This document shows, one piece after another, positions 105 to 58,362 of a DNA stretch of 64,000 nucleotides. The translations under genes and the position numbers were made by a program. Each line of letters opens with the position of its first letter. Within the stretch, counting starts at the first letter, position 1. Origin of the DNA: Escherichia coli (lineage in GTDB: Bacteria; Pseudomonadota; Gammaproteobacteria; Enterobacterales; Enterobacteriaceae); the NCBI RefSeq assembly GCF_044324875.1, contig NZ_CP172186.1. The stretch is one strand, 5' to 3'. Under the pieces are notes generated by a model. The model made no database searches, was not told where the DNA came from, and saw only the letters and a program-made list of their open reading frames with translations.

Positions 105-497
105 ATGTACGACGGCGAAGAAAGGAAAAAACTTTCACTCTACCTTCACCCGGAGGACTCTGCCGATTGTCTTGCACTGGCTGAAATCGAAACTGTTCCC
201 CGGAAAAAACGGGGGGAGTTATATCGGCAGGCTTTGATAACCGGCCTGATAATGCATCAGCTTGATGAGAGAATTCCCGCCGTGTTAACCGCGCTATTCA
301 CCAGAGAACTGAATGCGGATGAGGTCATTAGTCAGATTGCCAGGATAACAGGCTGGAAACCCTCCTCCGGTGATTTAAAAGAGGTACTGAAGGCGTTGGG
401 AGGGCTTCAGAGTACAGTTTCACCAGAACTCTCTCAGGATGACGGTGAACAGGCCCGTCTGAAAGCGGCTAGGGTGAAGATGCAAAACCTAATCTAA
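105..497 (+). CDS. stbB: ParR/StbB-like partition adaptor protein
   Basis: 130 aa; core ...RGELYRQALITGLIMHQLDERIPAVLTALFTRELNADEV... resembles ParR of R1/StbB of R100 as recalled. Confidence 0.65.
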   Translation: MYDGEERKKLSLYLHPEDSADCLALAEIETVPRKKRGELYRQALITGLIMHQLDERIPAVLTALFTRELNADEVISQIARITGWKPSSGDLKEVLKALGGLQSTVSPELSQDDGEQARLKAARVKMQNLI

Positions 498-652
498 AAA
501 AGTCTCGCTCCGTGAAACCTGCAAAATTTCTCGGGGTGTGCGGCTTAATTTTTAGATTTCCGCGTTTCCCGTCATTTGAGTCAATGGAGTGCTGGTTGAC
601 AGCTCCCTGCTCTGAAGGACGGGGATTCCCACATATGCAGCCAGATTTCCGG

Positions 653-760
653 CTAGTGTGGTTTCAGACGTTGTTCGATTTCATTCTGTAGCGCCTGAAG
701 TGTGCCTGATTTGAGGTTTTTTGTGCTCTGGCGGTCGAAAAGAATTTCAATGCGGATCAT
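653..760 (-). CDS. micro-ORF (35 aa, MIRIEILFDRQSTKNLKSGTLQALQNEIEQRLKPH) immediately downstream of a LexA box; possibly a longer gene broken by an in-frame TAG
   Basis: ATG at 758-760 (minus) preceded by AAGGGAG Shine-Dalgarno; below the ORF-track length cutoff; 23 further sense codons follow the TAG. Confidence 0.3.
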   Translation of the reverse strand: MIRIEILFDRQSTKNLKSGTLQALQNEIEQRLKPH

Positions 761-781
761 GTTCTCATCTCCCTTTTATTT

Positions 782-801
782 TACTGTGTATATATACAGT
801 A
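782..801. promoter_or_regulatory. LexA (SOS) box
   Basis: TACTGTGTATATATACAGTA = CTGT-N8-ACAG palindrome, near-perfect match to the E. coli LexA operator consensus. Confidence 0.6.
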
Positions 802-1153
802 TTCTAATAACTGAATCCACACACAGTCAAATGTCATTGTTGTGACTAAAAAACGCTCAATTCTCTGAGAGTGTGGCTGTATGCCTGCTGTGGACTGCTG
901 TGTCCAGCTTATCCACAGCATTTTGTGCACGGTTCTGTGGACAAAATACCTGGTTACCCAGGCCGTGCCGGCACGTTAACCGGGCTGCATCCGATGCAAG
1001 TGTGTCGCTGTCGCCGGCCTTCTCACCCGGTCACGTTTCGTCGTTCCTCCTCCACGAGCTGCGGCTTCGGGGCCGCACCTGCATTCGTATGCGGTCGCCC
1101 GGTTACAGGTGCGGCACGGCCTGATGGAGGCCGCATGTGAGAGGAGAATTCCC

Positions 1154-2080
1154 ATGCCAAACTGGTGCTCAAATCGTATGTATTTTTCTGGTGAACCGGC
1201 ACAGATTGCTGAGATTAAACGACTGGCCAGCGGTGCAGTCACACCGTTTTATCGCCGCGCCACAAATGAAGGTATTCAGCTGTTTCTGGCCGGAAGTGCC
1301 GGACTTCTGCAGACCACTGAAGATGTGCGGTTTGAACCATGTCCCGGACTGACGGCTGCCGGACGTGGCGTTGTATCGCCGGAGAATATCGCGTTCACCC
1401 GCTGGCTGACATACCTGCAGGACGGTGTACTGCTGGATGAGCAAAACTGCCTGATGCTGCATGAACTCTGGCTGCAGAGCGGTACTGGACAGCGTCGCTG
1501 GGAAGGATTACCGGACGATGTCAGGGATACCATCACCGCACTTTTCACCGCAAAAAGAGGTGACTGGTGTGGCTTCTGGAGTAACGAAGATGTATCGGTG
1601 TGGTGGAACCGTCTGTGTGACAACGTACTGCCGGAAAAAACCATGCCGTTTGACCTGCTGACGGTTCTGCCCACCCGCCTGGATGTTGAAGTGAATGGCT
1701 TTAACGGTGGTGTTCTGAACGGTGTTCCTTCTGCATATCACTGGTATACGGAACGGTATGGCGTGAAGTGGCCTGTGGGGTATGAGGTGAATATCAGTAA
1801 TCAGGGAGACAACTTCATTAAGGTGGATTTCGACACGCCGTGGTGTCAGCCGGAAAGCGACGTTATTGCAGAATTAAGCCGCCGTTTCAGCTGCACGCTG
1901 GAGCACTGGTATGCCGAACAGGGCTGTGATTTCTGTGGCTGGCAGTTGTATGAGCGCGGAGAGCTCGTTGATGTGCTGTGGGGGGAACTGGAATGGTCTT
2001 CCCCGACAGATGACGATGAGCTGCCGGAAGTCACCGGACCTGCGTGGATAGTCGACAATGTGGCGCATTATGGCGGATGA
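1154..2080 (+). CDS. leading-region hypothetical protein (possibly DUF1281-like)
   Basis: 308 aa from MPNWCSNRMYFSGEP; GAGGAG Shine-Dalgarno 8 nt upstream; start chosen inside the 1109..2080 ORF. Confidence 0.6.
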   Translation: MPNWCSNRMYFSGEPAQIAEIKRLASGAVTPFYRRATNEGIQLFLAGSAGLLQTTEDVRFEPCPGLTAAGRGVVSPENIAFTRWLTYLQDGVLLDEQNCLMLHELWLQSGTGQRRWEGLPDDVRDTITALFTAKRGDWCGFWSNEDVSVWWNRLCDNVLPEKTMPFDLLTVLPTRLDVEVNGFNGGVLNGVPSAYHWYTERYGVKWPVGYEVNISNQGDNFIKVDFDTPWCQPESDVIAELSRRFSCTLEHWYAEQGCDFCGWQLYERGELVDVLWGELEWSSPTDDDELPEVTGPAWIVDNVAHYGG

Positions 2081-4687: not shown

Positions 4688-5040
4688 AGGATGTCGCCGC
4701 AGGCTCCGCTTTACTCGGCCATGCGGGGCATGGCCTTGTGGGTTTTCAGTTATGTGGCCTCAGCGTCGTGTGCGGGCTGTGCCGTGCCTCCATCGTAGCC
4801 GGGCTTCTGCGGGCGGGTTGCAAGGTAAGGTGAACCGCTGCGGTCACCCGGTCCCTCCTTCCCGTCTGCCGTGATTTTCCGGTCGTTCACCCGCTCAGAT
4901 TTCGCGGTCTCACCCTCCAACTCCCGCCAGCCGTGTGCGTCAGGCTGCGGCTTCCCTTGCGCCCTTGCAACCCTGCAGGCCCGGCAAAGATGGAGGCACG
5001 GCACCGCCCGGTGTCGCGGAATATGTGAACAACGGAGGAA
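4688..5040 (+). promoter_or_regulatory. single-strand-promoter-like structured element, family A copy 1 (upstream of klcA)
   Basis: ~350-bp GC-rich element with long-range inverted repeats (TGCCGTGCCTCCATC ... GATGGAGGCACGGCA), near-identical to 16918..17275. Confidence 0.5.
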
Positions 5041-6289: not shown

Positions 6290-6875
6290 AAAGAACCTTC
6301 TTACACATGCGCCCCTTCGGCTCCCGGCTGCCTGGCGGCATCCGGTCGTCAGGCCCGACTCCGACAGGCAGCTGCTGGCGCACCCGCCAGTCTCCGCCGA
6401 ACCCGCTGGCGCGGTTTCGGGCTGTCGCTACGGTCCGATGCGTGAAAACCCGGGCTTGCAGCGACCGTTCCGGTCGCGCCGCCTCTGTCGCGCCGTGACC
6501 TGCGCTCCCTGCACACCTGACGGTGTGTGAGGAAACTGCGCCTGATGGCGCAGCAGTCCTCCCTCCTGCCGCCACCTCTGCGGCCTGTTTCCCGCTGTGG
6601 ACTTTCCGGGGGGCAGACGTAACCCCCTCCCGTTCCATCTGTCCAGGGTGAGATGCACCGGCCACAAAATTTTTAGCCATGAACCCGGCAAAAAATTTTG
6701 CGTCCGCCCCCGGACAGCTGCCCCGTGAGGCGGTAAACGGGCCCCCATCGGAAAGGTCCACTGCGGGGAGAAACCCCTGTGAAGTGGACGGCAGGAGGAG
6801 CTTTCGCTCCTCTGAAGGGGCACATGAACGTCCCGTCGCCGGTATCCGGTTTATCTCACATCTTTCAGTCAGGAG
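6290..6875 (+). promoter_or_regulatory. single-strand-promoter-like structured element, family B copy 1 (upstream of ssb)
   Basis: ~580-bp GC-rich repeat also found at 17935..18505 and, 3' part only, 20990..21380; contains CCACAAAA(C/T)TTTT...GCGTC(C/T)GCCCCCGGACA(G/A)CTGCCCCGTG core. Confidence 0.5.
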
Positions 6876-6881
6876 GTTCTT

Positions 6882-9800
6882 ATGAGTGCACGTGGTATCA
6901 ACAAGGTCATCCTCGTCGGGGTGCGCCGTTGAAGCGCGGTGTTTTATGGAGTGTTGCCTGAAAAGCAACATGGCTTAGTGGTATAGCCATTGCATACTGT
7001 GGTTAGCCTTGCTTGGTAACAGGCTCGGAGATCCTGAAAAGGAGAGGTGAACATAGCATCCACAGAAAAGGGTGGTGAATATGGAAATCGTTATAAGTAT
7101 CACCATTCAATGCAAGATGTATATGGATAAACTGGGTTTGTTGAAGTCGAGATCTATGTGGGAAACAGGAAACCAATAACGCAGAACGATTGAAGCGTTA
7201 TTCCCGTACTAGCACAAGAAATCCGTCCGACGTTGATTGTGACCACTCTAACGGGCCAGCTATTGATGAAATAGTTAAACGATCGAAAGACATCCTAAGT
7301 ACATCGCATCTCCACACCGTGAAACTACGGGACTACCTAAACTGGATTTATACCCAGCATGGTAGCGGAGTCTCCATAGTACTCAAGGTCGGCCTGTAAT
7401 GGGTTCCGGCAGTCCGCATTATACGGAAGCAGCAAAGGTATAAATCAACCGGAAGGAAGATGAAAGCCTCACAGTGCTGCGGGGAAGGGAGACAGTTGTT
7501 AGATACATCAATCTCTAAGAGGAGGGTTAGCCAATGCTGCCTGATGAACTTGAGAAAAGATTAGATGGAATTGAGGATGCTTCAAAAAAAGGGTATCCAG
7601 TACGTAATCTATACAAAATTGCGTGTGAGCCCGGACTGTGGCTGCAAGCCTACGTGAATATACGGGCCAATGCAGGTGCACTGACTCAAGGTGTATCAAC
7701 AGATACCATTGATGGCTTTTCTATCGAAAGAGCAGAGAAGCTGGCAAAAACATTGCGGAGTAGAGAATACGTAGCGAAACCTGTACGCAGAGTTCAGATC
7801 CCAAAAAAGGACGGAAAAACCAGACCGCTGGGGATTCCAGGTGGAGACGATAAACTGGCGCAAGAAGTAGCAAGAATTATTCTGGAAAGGGTTTATGAAC
7901 CAGTATTCTCTGAACACTCTCATGGATTCAGACCAAAACGTTCGTGTGAAACTGCGCTCAGATCTATTCGTCCAGTCTGGAACGGAGTTAAATGGATCGT
8001 GGATGTTGATATCAAAGGTTTCTTTGACAATATCCCCCACAAACTATTGCTGAATACACTGGCAGAGAAAATTAAGGATAAGAATTTCCTGAAATTAATC
8101 GAACAGTGGCTGAAGGCAGGATATGTGGACAATTGGAAATACCATCGCTCATATTCTGGCACGCCACAAGGTGGGATAATTTCTCCCTTACTGGCAAATA
8201 TATACCTCGACAAACTGGACCGTTTTGTAGAACAGAATTTAATTCCTGCATATACAAGCGGTACAAAACGAAGAGCGAATCCAGATATGAACAGGCTGGC
8301 CCATAAGATTCATAAACTACGAAAGAAAGTAGACGGTATGGCAACTGATTCTGAATCAGAAAAAGAAGCCATAAAGAAAGAAATTGAACGACTGCTTGAA
8401 GAAAAACGTTCTATACCATCTCAGGTCATGAACGATCCAAACTTCAGGCGTATGTACTATGTTCGATATGCTGATGACTTCGTAATCGGTGTCATCGGCT
8501 CGAAGAAAGATGCTGAACATATATCAAGACAGGTCAGAAACTTTATTACTACTTCACTGGGATTGGAAGTTAATGAAGCAAAGACCAGGATCCGCCATAT
8601 CTCAGAAGGAGTTAATTTTTTAGGCTATGAAATCAGACAGGCAGATGCAAAGAAATTGCTGAAGCAGAAAATGCAAGGGCGGCACGCTCTCCGGAGATCC
8701 ACCACAGGAATTGTGCAGCTCTTCGTTCCTGACAATATAGCCGCTAAATTTTGTCACCAAAAGAAATATGGCTGTTATGAGAATGTGAAGGCTGTACATC
8801 GTTCAAGTCTACAAAATCTCAGTGAAGCTGAAATTGTTCTGACTTTCAACGCGGAAATGCGCGGATTGGCGAACTACTACAGTCTGGCGCTGGACATGAA
8901 ATATAAATTATCAAAATTATATTTCATATGGCAAATAAGCCTTTTTAAGACCCTGGCGAATAAACGACGTAGTTCAGTGAATAAAGTCGCCAAATCGCTA
9001 CGGCAAAATAATGGAGATCTGGCTATTACCGTTCAGGCCAAAAATGGATCCCGAAAGATTGAGGTTTTCAAACTCAAACATGTCAATCGCAACCGAACAA
9101 CGATTGTCGATACGGAACCGAGAACCGCACATATCACAACCCGCACAACAGAGATCATGCGTCGATTAGGGGCAAGGATCTGCGAGTATTGTGCGAAGAC
9201 TGGGCGCTGCGAAGTACATCATGTCAGAAAGCTAAAAGACCTGAAGAAAGGTCGTAAGGCCGGATATAAACCCAGCTTGTGGCAACTAATGATGATCGCA
9301 CGCCGCCGGAAAACGATGATTTTGTGCGCAAGTTGCCACGACAAGTTACATAGCGGAAAACTACCCGATTTGAGACAGGAAAAGGGAAGAATACTCCTGC
9401 AACCACCTGTCTCAAGCGGGGATTCTGCTAAATGAGTTTATCCCCAATAAGCTAGCAATGGAGAGCCGTATGCACTGAAAGGTGCACGTACGGTTCGGAG
9501 GGGGGGTAACGGTGATCTAACTCAAGATAAGCAGGACATATTCGCCATTTATCTTGAAAGACCACACGTACCCTACCCTACCGTCTGGGCAATGATCCGG
9601 AAGTCTGTTACATCCCCAACGGGGGCGCAGTGGCAAACCTGCAGGTCGCCACGTCAGAAAGCTGGCGCGACAAACAGACGGGGGAGATGCGGGAGCAGAC
9701 GGAATGGCACCGCGTGGTGCTGTTCGGCAAGCTCGCGGAAGTGGCTGGTGAATATCTGCGCAAGGGCGCGCAGGTCTACATCGAGGGGCAACTCCGTACC

Positions 9801-16917: not shown

Positions 16918-17275
16918 GGAATAAGGACGTCGCCGCCGGCTCCGCTTTTACCCGGCCATGCGGGGCATGGCCTTGTGGGTTTTCAGCTCTGTGGCCTCAG
17001 CGTCGTGTGCGGGCTGTGCCGTGCCTCCATCGTAGCCGGGCTTCTGCGGGCGGGATGCAAGGTAAGATGAACCGCTGCGGTCACCCGGTCCCTCCTTCCC
17101 GTCTGCCGTGATTTTCCGGTCGTTCACCCGCTCAGATTTCGCGGTCTCACCCTCCAACTCCCGTCAGCCGTGCGCGTCGGGCTGCGGCTTTCCTTGCGCC
17201 CTTGCATCCCTGCAGGCCCGGCAAAGATGGAGGCACGGCACCGCCCGGTGTCGCAGAACATGTGACTATGGAGGA
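16918..17275 (+). promoter_or_regulatory. single-strand-promoter-like structured element, family A copy 2 (upstream of ardA)
   Basis: Near-identical to 4688..5040. Confidence 0.5.
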
Positions 17276-17934: not shown

Positions 17935-18505
17935 TGTTGTTCTGATGCCCGGAGGCGGGGACACCCTTCGGCTCCCGGCTGCCTGGCGGCATCCGGTCGT
18001 CGGCCCGACTCCGACAGGCAGCTGCTGGCGCACCCGCCAGTCTCCGCCGAACCCGCTGGCGCGGTTTCGGGCTGCCGCTACGGTCCGATGTCTGAAAAAC
18101 CAGGCCTGCAGCGACCGTTCCGGTCGCGCCGCCCCTGTCGCGCCGGAAACGGCGCTCCCTGCACACCTGACGGTGTGTAAGGCCACTGCGCCTGATGGCG
18201 CAGTCAACCCTTCCGCCGCCACCCCTGCGGCCTGTTTCCCGCTGTGGACTTTCCGGGGGCTGAAGCGGCCACAACACGGGGCAGCCGTCCAGGGGAGAGA
18301 TGTACCAGCCACAAAACTTTTTGCCGCAGGCGTCAAAAACTTTTGCGTCTGCCCCCGGACAACTGCCCCGTGCCGTGGCAGTCGCTGCCCCATCGGAAAG
18401 GTCCACTGCGGGGAGAAACCCCGAAGAAGTGGACGGCAGAAGGGGCTTTCGCCCCTCCGGGGGAGCAACCGGTCGGCCCGGCGACCTGATTCAGCAGAAG
18501 GAGAC
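17935..18505 (+). promoter_or_regulatory. single-strand-promoter-like structured element, family B copy 2
   Basis: Near-identical to 6290..6875. Confidence 0.5.
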
Positions 18506-20989: not shown

Positions 20990-21380
20990 TGTTGTGCCGT
21001 CGTTTTTCTTCAGTCGCGCCGGATGCGGCGCTCCCTGCACACCTTACGGTGTGTAAGGCCACTGCGCCTGATGGCGCAGCTGCCTCTGCCTGTCTGCCGC
21101 CGCACTGCGGCCTGTTCTCCGCAGACGGACTTTCCGGGGGTACATACACGACCACATCCCGTTTCAGTCGTCCAGGGGAGAGATGTACCAGCCACAAAAC
21201 TTTTTGCCGCAGGCGTCAAAAACTTTTGCGTCTGCCCCCGGACAACTGCCCCGTGACGTGGTGAGCGTCCCCCGTCGGAAAGGTCCACTGCGGGGAAATC
21301 CCCGAAGACCCGGACGGCAGAAGGAGCTTCGCTCCTCCGGGAAATGACCTGGCTGACCCGGCAGTCGTGACGATGAGGAG
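20990..21380 (+). promoter_or_regulatory. single-strand-promoter-like structured element, family B copy 3 (3' two-thirds only)
   Basis: Matches the 3' part of 6290..6875 and 17935..18505. Confidence 0.45.
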
Positions 21381-26854: not shown

Positions 26855-28144
26855 TGAACCGCCCCGGAAATCCTGGAGACTAAACTTCCTGAGAAAGATG
26901 TAAACAGGATGACTAAAAATACTCGTTTTTCCCCCGAAGTCCGTCAACGGGCAGTTCGTATGGTTCTGGAAAGCCAGGGCGAATATGACTCACAATGGGC
27001 GGCAATTTGTTCCATTGCTCCAAAGATTGGCTGTACGCCAGAGACCCTGCGTGTCTGGGTTCGCCAGCATGAGCGGGATACCGGGGGCGGTGATGGTGGG
27101 CTCACCACCGCTGAACGTCAGCGTCTGAAAGAGCTGGAACGCGAAAATCGTGAACTGCGCCGCAGTAACGATATCCTTCGCCAGGCTTCCGCTTATTTTG
27201 CGAAGGCGGAGTTCGACCGCCTCTGGAAAAAATAATGCCACTGCTGGATAAGCTGCGTGAGCTGCAGTGAGCTGCATATTGCCCCGTCAACGTATTACCA
27301 CTGTCAGCAACAGCAGCATCATCCTGATAAACGCAGCGCCCGTGCGCAGCGTGATGACTGGCTGAAGAAAGAGATACAGCGCGTATACGATGAAAATCAC
27401 CAGGTGTACGGTGTGCGTAAAGTCTGGCGTCAGTTGTTACGGGAAGGTATCAGAGTGGCCAGATGCACTGTGACACGTCTTATGGCGGTTATGGGTTTTG
27501 CCGGTGTTCTCCGGGGTAAAAAGGTCCGCATTACCGTCAGCCGGAAAGCCGTTGCCGCAGGCGACCGCGTAAACCGTCATTTCGTGGCAGAACGTCCTGA
27601 CCAGCTGTGGGTGGCTGATTTTACTTACGTCAGCACATGGCAGGGCTTTGTTTATGTGGCGTTCATCATTGATGTGTTTGCCGGATACATCGTGGGATGG
27701 CGGGTCTCCTCGTCCATGGAAACGACATTCGTGCTGGATGCACTGGAGCAGGCGTTGTGGGCCCGTCGTCCGTCTGGCACCATCCATCACAGCGATAAAG
27801 GCTCTCAGTATGTATCGCTGGCCTACACGCAGCGGCTTAAGGAAGTCGGATTACTGGCATCAACAGGGAGCACAGGCGACTCGTATGACAACGCGATGGC
27901 GGAGAGCATCAATGGTCTTTACAAGGCGGAGGTAATACACCGTAAGAGCTGGAAAAACCGGACAGAAGTGGAGCTGGCTACACTCACGTGGGTGGACTGG
28001 TATAACAATCGACGATTGCTGGAAAGGCTGGGCCATACTCCCCCGGCAGAAGCAGAAAAAGCTTATTATGCTTCCATCGGAAACAATGATCTGGCAGCCT
28101 GAGTTCACAGACAAAACATTCTCCAGGAAACCCGGGGCGGTTCA
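26855..28144 (+). mobile_element. IS629/IS1203-like IS3-family element, copy A (small internal deletion, frameshifted orfB)
   Basis: Ends TGAACCGCCCCGG...CCCGGGGCGGTTCA; orfA 26909..27235, orfB remnant 27257..28102; ~20 bp missing at orfA/orfB junction relative to copy C. Confidence 0.85.
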
Positions 28145-31981: not shown

Positions 31982-33163
31982 TGAACCGCCCCGGGTTTCC
32001 TGGAGAGTGTTTTATCTGTGAACTCAGGCTGCCAGATCATCGTTTCCGATGGAAGCATAATAAGCTTTTTCTGCTTCTGCCGGTGGGATATGGCCCAGCC
32101 TTTCCAGCAATCGTCGATTGTTATACCAGTCCACCCACGTGAGTGTGGCCAGCTCCACTTCTGTCCGGTTTTTCCAGCTCTTACGGTGTATTACCTCCGC
32201 TTTGTAAAGGCCATTGATGCTCTCCGCCATCGCGTTGTCATACGAGTCACCAGTACTTCCTGTTGATGCCAGTAATCCGGCTTCCTTAAGCCGCTGTGTG
32301 TAGGCCAGCGATACATACTGAGAACCTTTATCACTGTGATGGACTGTGCCGGACGGTCGACGGGCCCATAACGCCTGCTCCAGAGCATCCAGCACGAATG
32401 TCGTTTCCATAGACGATGAGACCCGCCACCCCACGATGTATCCGGCAAACACATCAATGATGAACGCCACATAGACGACCCCCTGCCATGTGCTGACGTA
32501 AGTAAAATCAGCCACCCACAACTGGTCAGGACGTTCTGCCACAAACTGACGGTTTACGCGGTCGCCTGCGGCAACGGCTTTCCGGCTGACGGTAGTGCGG
32601 ACCTTTTTACCCCGGAGAACACCGGCAAGTCCCATAACCGCCATGAGGCGCGCCACTGTACATCTGGCTACCCTGATTCCTTCCCGTAACAACTGACGCC
32701 AGACTTTACGCACACCGTATACCTGATGATTCCCATCGTATACGCGCAGTATCTCTTTCTTCAGCCAGTCATCGCGCTGCGCACGGGCACTGCGTTTATA
32801 AGGATGATGTCGCTGTTGCTGACAGTGGTAATACGTTGACGGGGCAATATGTAGTTCACTGCATACCGGTCCGACCCCGTACAGCTTACGCAGCTTATCC
32901 AGCAGTGGCATCACTTTTTCCAGAGGCGGTCGAACTCCGCCTTCGCAAAATAAGCGGAAGCCTGGCGAAGGATATCGTTACTGCGGCGCAGTTCACGATT
33001 TTCACGTTCCAGCTCTTTCAGACGCTGACGTTCAGCGGTGGTGAGCCCGCCATCACCGCCTCCGGTATCCCGCTCATGCTGGCGTACCCAGACACGCAGG
33101 GTCTCTGGCGTACAGCCAATCTTTGGAGCAATGGAACAAATTGCCGCCCACTGTGAGTCATAT
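31982..33163 (-). mobile_element. IS629/IS1203-like element, copy B, 5'-truncated
   Basis: orfB 32024..32914 intact; orfA loses its first ~30 codons at the junction with the IS66-family element. Confidence 0.8.
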
Positions 33164-40982: not shown

Positions 40983-41438
40983 GGGGATTCCTCCATAGAT
41001 GAATGGATAAATTTCGGGATTAAGTCGGGTGGCATGAATGCGAATCAGCGCCGGTAATAACCGGACAGGAATGAATTCAACAGGACATTTTTACAGAGAA
41101 GAGCGAACGGCAGAAGGTGGTGGGAGACAGGTACAAAAAAACCGACTGGTGAGGCCGGTTTTTTTGCGATTCCGGGGTGGAGTTGGTGGCTCTGACCGGA
41201 GGAAGTCTCTTTTCAGCTAACAATGAGAGAGCTGTTGTGACAGGCAATGTAAGAGTAAGCAGCAGTGATTTCCTCCATTGACGGAGAAACGGATGATTAA
41301 CCTGTTAATCATCGTTCTCAGGGCGGTTGTTGCTGTGGCTAACGCAGTGATAGCTCTCCGGGAACTGGTTGACTGATAATCCCGGAAACGTACTTAAGGG
41401 CAGAGGGTCACCTCCTTCTGCCCTTTAACAAAATATGC

Positions 41439-46647: not shown

Positions 46648-46991
46648 CGGTGGGGTACAAACGCAGAAATTTTGTTGTCATTACATCATCAGTTTTAGCC
46701 TGCAGAGACGCTGAAAAATCAGCGTTTTCAGACCCTGTTCAGGTTAGTGAATATTCTTGCCTGGCCTTTCGGCAATATCAATCCCCTGATGTGTGCACAC
46801 GTAGTCACTTTCCGGCTTTATTTCTGTCCCTGACACAAAATACGTGGTGGCATGAAAAGGATTGTGGCGGACAGGAAAACGATTAGAATAGCGGCGGGCG
46901 CTTGAGGCTGTATGCCGAAAGCGTTTTGTGGACGGCATGTAGCAGAAAGCCCCAGGCGATTTTTTTATCAATCAACCCAGGGCCCACTGTA

Positions 46992-47195
46992 ATGCCTAGA
47001 CAACATTATAGTAGCCCGATGACGGCCGAAAGGCAATGGAGGGGCTGCGATGCCACAACGAACGTTTTTAATGATGTTAATCGTCGTCTGTGTGACGATA
47101 CTGTGTTTTGTCTGGATGGTGAGGGATTCGCTTTGCGGATTTCGTATCGAGCAGGGAAATACGGTGCTTGTGGCAACGTTAGCCTACGAAGTTAA
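46992..47195 (+). CDS. pndC: possible PndC (mok-like overlapping reading frame); start uncertain
   Basis: Alternate frame overlapping almost all of pndA, as in hok/mok-type loci. Confidence 0.35.
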   Translation: MPRQHYSSPMTAERQWRGCDATTNVFNDVNRRLCDDTVFCLDGEGFALRISYRAGKYGACGNVSLRS

Positions 47196-57148: not shown

Positions 57149-57475
57149 ATGACTAAAAATACTCGTTTTTCCCCCGAAGTCCGTCAGAGGGCGATTCGTA
57201 TGGTTCTGGAAAGTCAGGGCGAATATGACTCACAGTGGGCGGCAATTTGTTCCATTGCCCCAAAGATTGGCTGTACACCGGAGACTCTGCGTGTCTGGGT
57301 ACGCCAGCATGAGCGGGATACCGGAGGCGGTGATGGCGGGCTCACCACCGCTGAACGTCAGCGTCTGAAAGAGCTGGAACGTGAAAATCGTGAACTGCGC
57401 CGCAGTAACGATATCCTTCGCCAGGCTTCCGCTTATTTTGCGAAGGCGGAGTTCGACCGCCTCTGGAAAAAGTGA
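57149..57475 (+). CDS. IS629 OrfA
   Basis: 108 aa [41 protein letters not shown]... Confidence 0.9.
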
Positions 57476-58362
57476 TGCCACTGCTGGATAAGCTGCGTAA
57501 GCTGTACGGGGTCGGACCGGTATGCAGTGAACTACATATTGCCCCGTCAACGTATTACCACTGTCAGCAACAGCGACATCATCCTGATAAACGCAGTGCC
57601 CGTGCGCAGCGCGATGACTGGCTGAAGAAAGAGATACTGCGCGTATACGATGGGAATCATCAGGTATACGGTGTGCGTAAAGTCTGGCGTCAGTTGTTAC
57701 GGGAAGGAATCAGGGTAGCCAGATGTACAGTGGCGCGCCTCATGGCGGTTATGGGACTTGCCGGTGTTCTCCGGGGTAAAAAGGTCCGCACTACCGTCAG
57801 CCGGAAAGCCGTTGCCGCAGGCGACCGCGTAAACCGTCAGTTTGTGGCAGAACGTCCTGACCAGTTGTGGGTGGCTGATTTTACTTACGTCAGCACATGG
57901 CAGGGGGTCGTCTATGTGGCGTTCATCATTGATGTGTTTGCCGGATACATCGTGGGGTGGCGGGTCTCATCGTCTATGGAAACGACATTCGTGCTGGATG
58001 CTCTGGAGCAGGCGTTATGGGCCCGTCGACCGTCCGGCACAGTCCATCACAGTGATAAAGGTTCTCAGTATGTATCGCTGGCCTACACACAGCGGCTTAA
58101 GGAAGCCGGATTACTGGCATCAACAGGAAGTACTGGTGACTCGTATGACAACGCGATGGCGGAGAGCATCAATGGCCTTTACAAAGCGGAGGTAATACAC
58201 CGTAAGAGCTGGAAAAACCGGACAGAAGTGGAGCTGGCCACACTCACGTGGGTGGACTGGTATAACAATCGACGATTGCTGGAAAGGCTGGGCCATATCC
58301 CACCGGCAGAAGCAGAAAAAGCTTATTATGCTTCCATCGGAAACGATGATCTGGCAGCCTGA
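57472..58362 (+). CDS. IS629 OrfB (DDE transposase)
   Basis: 296 aa; ...[13 protein letters not shown]...[10 protein letters not shown]...[15 protein letters not shown]... Confidence 0.9.

Follow-up and report, generated by a model that had tools for sequence, protein, structure and literature searches.

We propose that positions 596-830 of the 64-kb stretch of DNA analysed here (the window) are the decayed 5' end of a plasmid impCAB operon, in which a deletion came first and a nonsense codon was added later; we put the probability of this reading at roughly 0.93. The impCAB operon encodes a DinI-like modulator and a UmuD'2C-type translesion polymerase. What the window holds is the known imp operator and a pseudogene fragment of a known gene, and it is nothing new in kind. 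Our additions are modest: the precise junction at which impC is broken off and the insertion sequence (IS) right-end fragment to which it is joined, which account for the annotations of a "59-aa hypothetical protein" in related plasmids.

The imp operator and the truncated impC gene

The LexA operator of the E. coli type is a 20-nt palindrome, TACTG(TA)5CAGTA, with an invariant CTGT-N8-ACAG core. The sequence TACTGTGTATATATACAGTA at 782..801, which reads TACTGTATATATACACAGTA toward impC, agrees with the consensus TACTGTATATATATACAGTA at 19 of 20 positions, and nowhere else in the 64 kb is there a site with three or fewer mismatches to that consensus. Its CTGT-N8-ACAG core is unchanged across six aligned relatives. 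On the IncI1 plasmid pTF2, the orthologous operator TACTGTATATACATACAGCA is found 21 nt upstream of impC, and its heterology index (HI) is 1.60 (PMC12211044); the box in the window is closer to the consensus than that of pTF2 (1 mismatch vs 2). A secondary, weak LexA-like site, AACTGAATCCACACACAGTC at 809..828, is verbatim the second imp site of pTF2, which lies 48 nt upstream of impC with an HI of 13.49 (PMC12211044). In an SOS-constitutive strain, ImpC of pTF2 was increased 21-fold and ImpA 9-fold (PMC12211044). The assignment of the 782..801 box as the primary LexA (SOS) operator of the imp operon is therefore supported by its orthology to a published imp operator. The earlier note had called this box a textbook SOS operator, a description that holds for its single mismatch, its uniqueness in the 64 kb and its orthology alike.

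Both sites overlap a predicted imp promoter on the minus strand (801..830), which consists of a -35 hexamer TTGACT at 830-825, an 18-nt spacer and a -10 hexamer TAGAAT at 806-801. This promoter matches the consensus at 10 of 12 positions and is the sole sigma-70-like site found in 450-1200. The secondary site overlaps the -35 hexamer. With the -10 hexamer placed at 806-801, the primary box would start at the last base of that hexamer and cover the start-site region, and thus overlaps the core promoter as predicted from consensus. Since the primary box is nearer to the consensus and the secondary site is present verbatim, LexA presumably still represses the imp promoter.

Downstream of the operator, a ribosome-binding site AAGGGAG can be read from the sequence at 769..775 on the minus strand, 8 nt upstream of an ATG at 760-758, which in turn is 21 nt from the edge of the LexA box. 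The AAGGGAG is kept in five of six aligned relatives and is AAGGAAG in the sixth. The minus-strand open reading frame (ORF) then comprises 35 codons (MIRIEILFDRQSTKNLKSGTLQALQNEIEQRLKPH) followed by a TAG at 655-653, beyond which exactly 23 codons remain open (PEIWLHMWESPSFRAGSCQPALH) up to a TGA at 583-581. The earlier note had described just this arrangement, with an ATG about 20 bp from the box, the AAGGGAG, 35 codons, a TAG and 23 further open codons, and each element was found in its place. It had also judged the peptide hydrophilic and unlike TisB or DinQ, which agrees with its GRAVY of -0.71 and with a best 19-residue window of -0.28, none being hydrophobic. The near-identical RefSeq plasmid pLH50-c-A carries no annotation at this position, and an Rfam search of 400-1200 at a permissive threshold gave no match to an RNA family.

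The ORF begins as impC does. In a blastn comparison with the intact IncI1 locus L003, homology stops at window position 633, which corresponds to L003 4128, and a tblastn search of the 64-kb window with ImpC placed residues 1-43 at 760..632 and at no other place. The impC remnant (633..760, minus strand) thus comprises the first ~124-128 nt, or codons 1 to 41-43, of the DinI-like impC gene. When the read-through peptide was used in tblastn against 72,556 plasmids, 2,636 records were matched; in over 2,000 plasmids, its residues 1-43 align with ~95% amino acid identity to a product annotated as a "DinI-like family protein", and the match ends there. In the intact Salmonella plasmid pSL476_91, the operator lies between the DUF1281 gene, which reads away from it on one side, and the genes impC (82 aa), impA (umuD) and impB (Y-family polymerase), which read away from it on the other and are met by parR and parM from the opposite direction. 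The window from 2200 to 633 aligns to pSL476_91 with 95.5% identity, and the alignment ends at impC nt 128. Within the first 25 kb of the window, matches to other I-complex plasmids likewise begin no earlier than 633. Taking the impC homology together with the same operator in the intact locus, we identify the micro-ORF as a stump from the 5' end of impC, and the LexA box as the imp operator. Neither ImpA nor ImpB (E <= 0.01), nor the C-terminal half of ImpC, was found by tblastn against the whole 64 kb, and the stump is not followed by impA and impB as it would be in an impCAB operon.

The stump falls well short of a DinI domain. Intact ImpC matches the Pfam DinI family PF06183 over residues 19-79 with an E value of 1e-17, and E. 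coli DinI (PDB 1GHH) with an E value of 7e-6. Against the NCBIfam DinI model, the stump reaches 14.5 and 19.8 bits (E 0.036 and 0.00078), below the cutoff of 111 bits. A complete domain takes up ~63 model positions in a protein of ~80 aa; the ORF of the window has 35 residues, and the homology ends at codon 41-43. Eight DinI residues have been reported as necessary for stabilisation of the RecA filament, namely L13, L21, E24, E69, W71, D76, W77 and F78 (PMC9926225). In our alignment with DinI, the last five of these map to ImpC 71-79, beyond the junction, and the C-terminal RecA-contact region that they make up is missing from the stump. The descent from impC is clear both from the sequence and from the orthologous position between the same flanks; with the domain incomplete, the stump is a pseudogene fragment of a DinI family member and not a member itself. 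More than 80% of I-complex plasmids retain impCAB, which is under purifying selection and is toxic when overexpressed (PMC10286972), and the lineage of the window is among the I-complex minority without it.

The junction, its carriers and the TAG allele

At the junction, impC is fused to a 37-nt segment (596..632, minus strand) that formed the extreme right end of a TnpB (IS200/IS605-type) element; it ends in TCAA at 596 and has a decayed subterminal hairpin with two mismatches. This segment is 89-92% identical to copies in loci L008 and L010 and to DNA that directly follows an intact tnpB in locus L011. The 37-nt sequence is found in plasmids of Klebsiella, Citrobacter and Salmonella bongori; in the Citrobacter plasmid the match is directly 3' of an intact gene for "RNA-guided endonuclease TnpB", and in the Klebsiella plasmid it is 3' of a TnpB C-terminal fragment. 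Agreement among three independent copies breaks off after GGGAGCAGTCAA, and the right end of the element is therefore placed there. No tnpB was found anywhere in the 64 kb, and neither a left end nor tnpA was found in the window, so that of a TnpB element with its gene and both ends the window has the right-end 37 nt alone.

The sharp end of homology at 632/633 could itself be taken for an IS terminus, a reading that we rejected, the true IS end being the TCAA at 596. Because the intact copies run on into tnpB, 632/633 is instead the endpoint of a deletion, and because the window has CATATG where intact impC has CGTATA, the breakpoint can be placed only within 632-637. Between the IS end and the partition module lies a 32-nt filler (564..595), which presumably flanked the IS right end originally; the TGA at 583-581, where the 59-codon ORF of relatives terminates, falls within it. 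No source for this filler was found in L003 or in the Klebsiella IncFII plasmid L006. Its sole outside match, to psiA (window 562-599, 38 nt, 89.5%, E 1e-4), overlaps the IS end and was judged uninformative. A further candidate, in which 564-632 would be a divergent 3' end of impB, was suggested by a faint likeness between GIPVLQS in the minus frame and the ImpB tail WRDIPLARLG; it was rejected, as there is no ImpB similarity at E <= 0.01 and the right end of a TnpB element matches instead.

The same junction is present in 188-199 PLSDB plasmids (~190) and in 122 of 5,426 complete E. coli genomes. Its carriers have a chimeric 59-codon ORF, which is open in ~190 plasmids and which, in its TAC version, appears in RefSeq as a 59-aa "hypothetical protein" or "impC protein" (WP_000618107.1 and relatives). 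In the window this ORF is interrupted at 653..655 (minus strand) by a secondary nonsense mutation, TAG in place of the TAC for Tyr36, base 653 of the window being C where its relatives have G. In the alignment, the TAG occurs in the window and in pLH50-c-A alone, and the remaining four relatives read TAC; over 400-1150, pLH50-c-A and the window are 99.9% identical. An exact 60-mer with the TAG was found in 3 of 72,556 plasmid records, which are also all the records of that collection at >=99%; the other fully covered records among the 30 listed are one base off this 60-mer (98.3%). An 86-mer with the TAG was found in 2 records of complete E. coli genomes. With the junction common to ~190 plasmids and the TAG present in 3 records, the TAG is a late, rare and secondary change in an already truncated gene. 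The three TAG plasmids were typed as IncK2/Z, IncFIA/FIB/FIC and IncFIA, and the occurrence of one allele on IncK2/Z and IncF backbones indicates that the par-impC' block moves between backbones.

These results divide the second of the two possibilities raised in the earlier note, that of a recently inactivated SOS-regulated gene. An SOS gene was indeed inactivated here; the lesion was the deletion shared by ~190 plasmids, and the TAG on which the suggestion had turned came later, in three records. Homologues do carry a sense codon at the TAG, namely TAC for Tyr36, yet these 59-aa homologues are products of the truncated chimera too.

From these comparisons we suggest a plausible history. A TnpB-type IS in the same orientation as imp would have sat between the imp operon and a convergent parMR module. 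One illegitimate deletion would then have joined impC nt ~124-128 to a point 37 nt from the IS right end, taking with it the body of the IS together with at least 1.8 kb of imp sequence, namely impC codons ~43-82 and the whole of impA and impB. The chimeric 59-codon ORF would have arisen in this way from ~43 ImpC codons and 16 codons of non-coding IS and flank DNA, and the junction may then have spread with the par module to IncK, IncZ, IncI-gamma and IncF backbones. In the sublineage of the window, a later C-to-G change would have turned the Tyr36 codon TAC into TAG and left 35 codons. The imp promoter, both LexA operators, the ribosome-binding site and impC codons 1 to ~41-43 would be what survives of the operon. 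This orphan promoter would still be bound and repressed by LexA, and a short transcript would appear upon DNA damage; its product would be inert as a DinI or ImpC protein, while imp-dependent UV protection and mutagenesis would be lost. A direct ancestor, having this par allele, the TnpB element and an intact impCAB, was not found in PLSDB, where the records covering 430-640 or 545-640 are all junction carriers or match on the par side alone; the single deletion and the original position of the IS are therefore inferred.

Of separate note, a truncated TnpB element of the same type adjoins a decayed umuC-like gene, of which a DUF4113 fragment and frameshifted pieces can be recognised, in the Klebsiella sequence NZ_CP084169.1 (L008 1674-2226 and 2553-2951). 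This is a second instance of this IS type beside a broken SOS-polymerase operon, on an unrelated plasmid.

The value of the proposed history is practical, in annotation, phenotype and tracing, and none of it is conceptual. The 59-aa "hypothetical protein" and "impC protein" entries of ~190 plasmids would be the products of a chimeric pseudogene and would not constitute a protein family. Plasmids of this lineage lack the imp translesion polymerase and should not give the UV protection and SOS mutagenesis that are typical of most I-complex plasmids. Finally, the junction between impC nt ~128 and the TnpB right end can serve as a marker for tracing recombination of the par module across IncK, IncZ, IncI-gamma and IncF plasmids.

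The partition module and other readings of the locus

The imp remnant is convergent with a ParR-like partition gene (105-497, plus strand), which together with a 66-nt downstream spacer occupies 105..563. The gene is located downstream of parM and is annotated as a "plasmid partitioning/stability family protein" in relatives; the partition module that the earlier note had placed next to the micro-ORF is thus in place. Window positions 480-563 are 94% identical to the par-downstream sequence of the Klebsiella IncFII plasmid L006, and 431-563, comprising the 3' end of parR and the 66 nt, is common to Klebsiella IncFII plasmids with the same par allele. In contrast, blastn of the par module to the left of 633 gave no similarity to the parMR of pSL476_91, and the allele differs from that of IncI1. 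As the par allele is shared with Klebsiella IncFII and not with IncI1, 632/633 is also a mosaic boundary between backbones.

One observation counts against a reading of the locus as simple decay: the promoter, operator, ribosome-binding site and start codon are intact in ~190 carriers, which could reflect either recency or retained use. Retained use might take the form of a co-opted promoter. After the deletion, the orphan SOS promoter lies ~260 nt from the stop of the convergent parR, and the minus strand from 760 to 497 has no predicted intrinsic terminator of the canonical kind. DNA damage might then drive an antisense or read-through RNA over parR and parM, carrying an omega-RNA-like IS fragment, and so tie partition to the SOS response. 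Junction carriers have kept the promoter and operator, and the junction always travels with this par allele, a constant company that such a link, if true, could explain. Physical linkage explains it as well, and since intact plasmids already have imp and par in convergent order, the geometry is inherited rather than selected. In addition, the predicted fold of the minus-strand RNA has an AU-rich hairpin and a U-run across the parR stop, which may terminate transcription. We consider such a co-option very unlikely.

Retained use might otherwise reside in the peptide, and the first possibility raised in the earlier note was an SOS-induced small protein. The 35-aa peptide, or the 59-aa version of its relatives, would in that case be functional, for example as a partial DinI mimic that modulates RecA. 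The promoter, the LexA box, the strong ribosome-binding site and the ATG are all intact, the 59-codon ORF is open in ~190 plasmids, and the stump retains the counterparts of DinI L13, L21 and E24. What was found instead is the N-terminal stump of the 82-aa ImpC, and residues 44-59 are translated from a non-coding IS end. Only three of the eight RecA-contact residues remain in the stump, along with less than half of the Pfam DinI domain, and half a domain of a small alpha/beta fold would be unlikely to fold. Changes in the ORF are also tolerated: codon 36 is a nonsense codon in three plasmids, and the non-synonymous changes in the 59-codon ORF include N15K and an alteration of the tail from FRAGS to FRVRS (CP082556). 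Because the tail is IS-derived, the contact residues are mostly lost, and nonsense and non-synonymous changes are tolerated, we regard a functional small protein as even less probable than co-option.

That the palindrome is a chance LexA-like sequence without a regulatory role has a negligible probability: the minimal CTGT-N8-ACAG core does occur 4 times in the window against 1.15 expected, so that weak matches arise by chance, the core alone is not discriminating and only the full palindrome is informative, but none of 100 dinucleotide shuffles gave the full 20-mer match or any site with three or fewer mismatches, and the position of the box relative to the promoter and impC is that of the published imp operator. 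We therefore retain the decayed impCAB operon as the preferred reading.

Several other features of the window were seen along the way and are recorded here in their own right. The untranslated interval 835-1155, from the imp promoter to the DUF1281 gene (1154-2080, plus strand), has a single-stranded DNA fold that beats shuffled sequences (z -5.7 on the plus strand and -4.9 on the minus strand) and contains an imperfect inverted repeat, 959-1002 and 1076-1123, that is ~80% complementary over 49 nt. Given its leading-region context, this structure could be a single-strand promoter or an initiation structure; it shows no sequence relationship to repeats elsewhere in the window. Direct repeats of 60-200 nt form families with 80-97% identity at 6352-6838, 18002-18483 and 21013-21261; two copies are separated by ~11.65 kb, and a third follows after another 2.9 kb. 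A separate 300-nt repeat occupies 4710-5009 and 16947-17246. These leading-region repeats may be regulatory elements. At 9461-9581 (plus strand), Rfam detects the catalytic domain of a group II intron with 67 bits, in a region for which the annotation of related plasmids lists group II intron reverse transcriptases (ltrA). The plasmid nearest to the window, pLH50-c-A, covers only 79% of the first 25 kb, so the two may not have the same intron content.

Of additional note, an Rfam match to AgrB, an antisense RNA of the dinQ/agrB type, at 41133-41220 (minus strand, 51.8 bits) suggests a DinQ-like toxin locus. The dqlB LexA site reported on pTF2 was not found in the 64-kb window. A full-length sok antitoxin RNA, of the hok/sok post-segregational killing system, was detected by Rfam at 46896-47052 (plus strand). 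ALIL pseudoknots, which are frameshift signals of the IS3 family, were found at 27190-27276 (plus strand), 32840-32956 (minus strand) and 57430-57546 (plus strand), and the equal scores and inverted orientation of the last two suggest a segment bounded by ISs.

Comparison with known systems

The impCAB operon was reportedly described from the I-complex plasmid TP110 by Lodwick et al. in 1990 and from the Shigella virulence plasmid by Runyen-Janecky et al. in 1999. With the impCAB loci of pTF2 and pSL476_91, the window shares its promoter, both LexA sites (primary and secondary) and the ribosome-binding site; its first ~41-43 impC codons are ~95-100% identical at the nucleotide level, and here too they are flanked by the DUF1281 gene and a parMR module. 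The differences are that the last ~40 codons of impC, impA and impB are gone and an IS right-end fragment is in their stead, that the par module is a different allele, and that there is an extra TAG at codon 36.

Relative to E. coli DinI (PDB 1GHH, 7YWA; PF06183), the stump corresponds approximately to residues 1-40, and both genes are regulated by LexA; unlike DinI, the stump is without the C-terminal E69, W71, D76, W77 and F78 that are needed for binding to the RecA filament. The type I toxins TisB and DinQ likewise have a short ORF downstream of a LexA box. These toxins are hydrophobic membrane peptides under antisense RNA control, whereas the peptide of the window is hydrophilic, has no membrane-spanning segment of the kind that defines them, and is ImpC in sequence. 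With IS200/IS605 TnpB elements, finally, the window shares the terminal 37 nt of the right end, up to the closing TCAA; in contrast to such elements, it has no tnpB, tnpA or left end, and its hairpin carries two mismatches.
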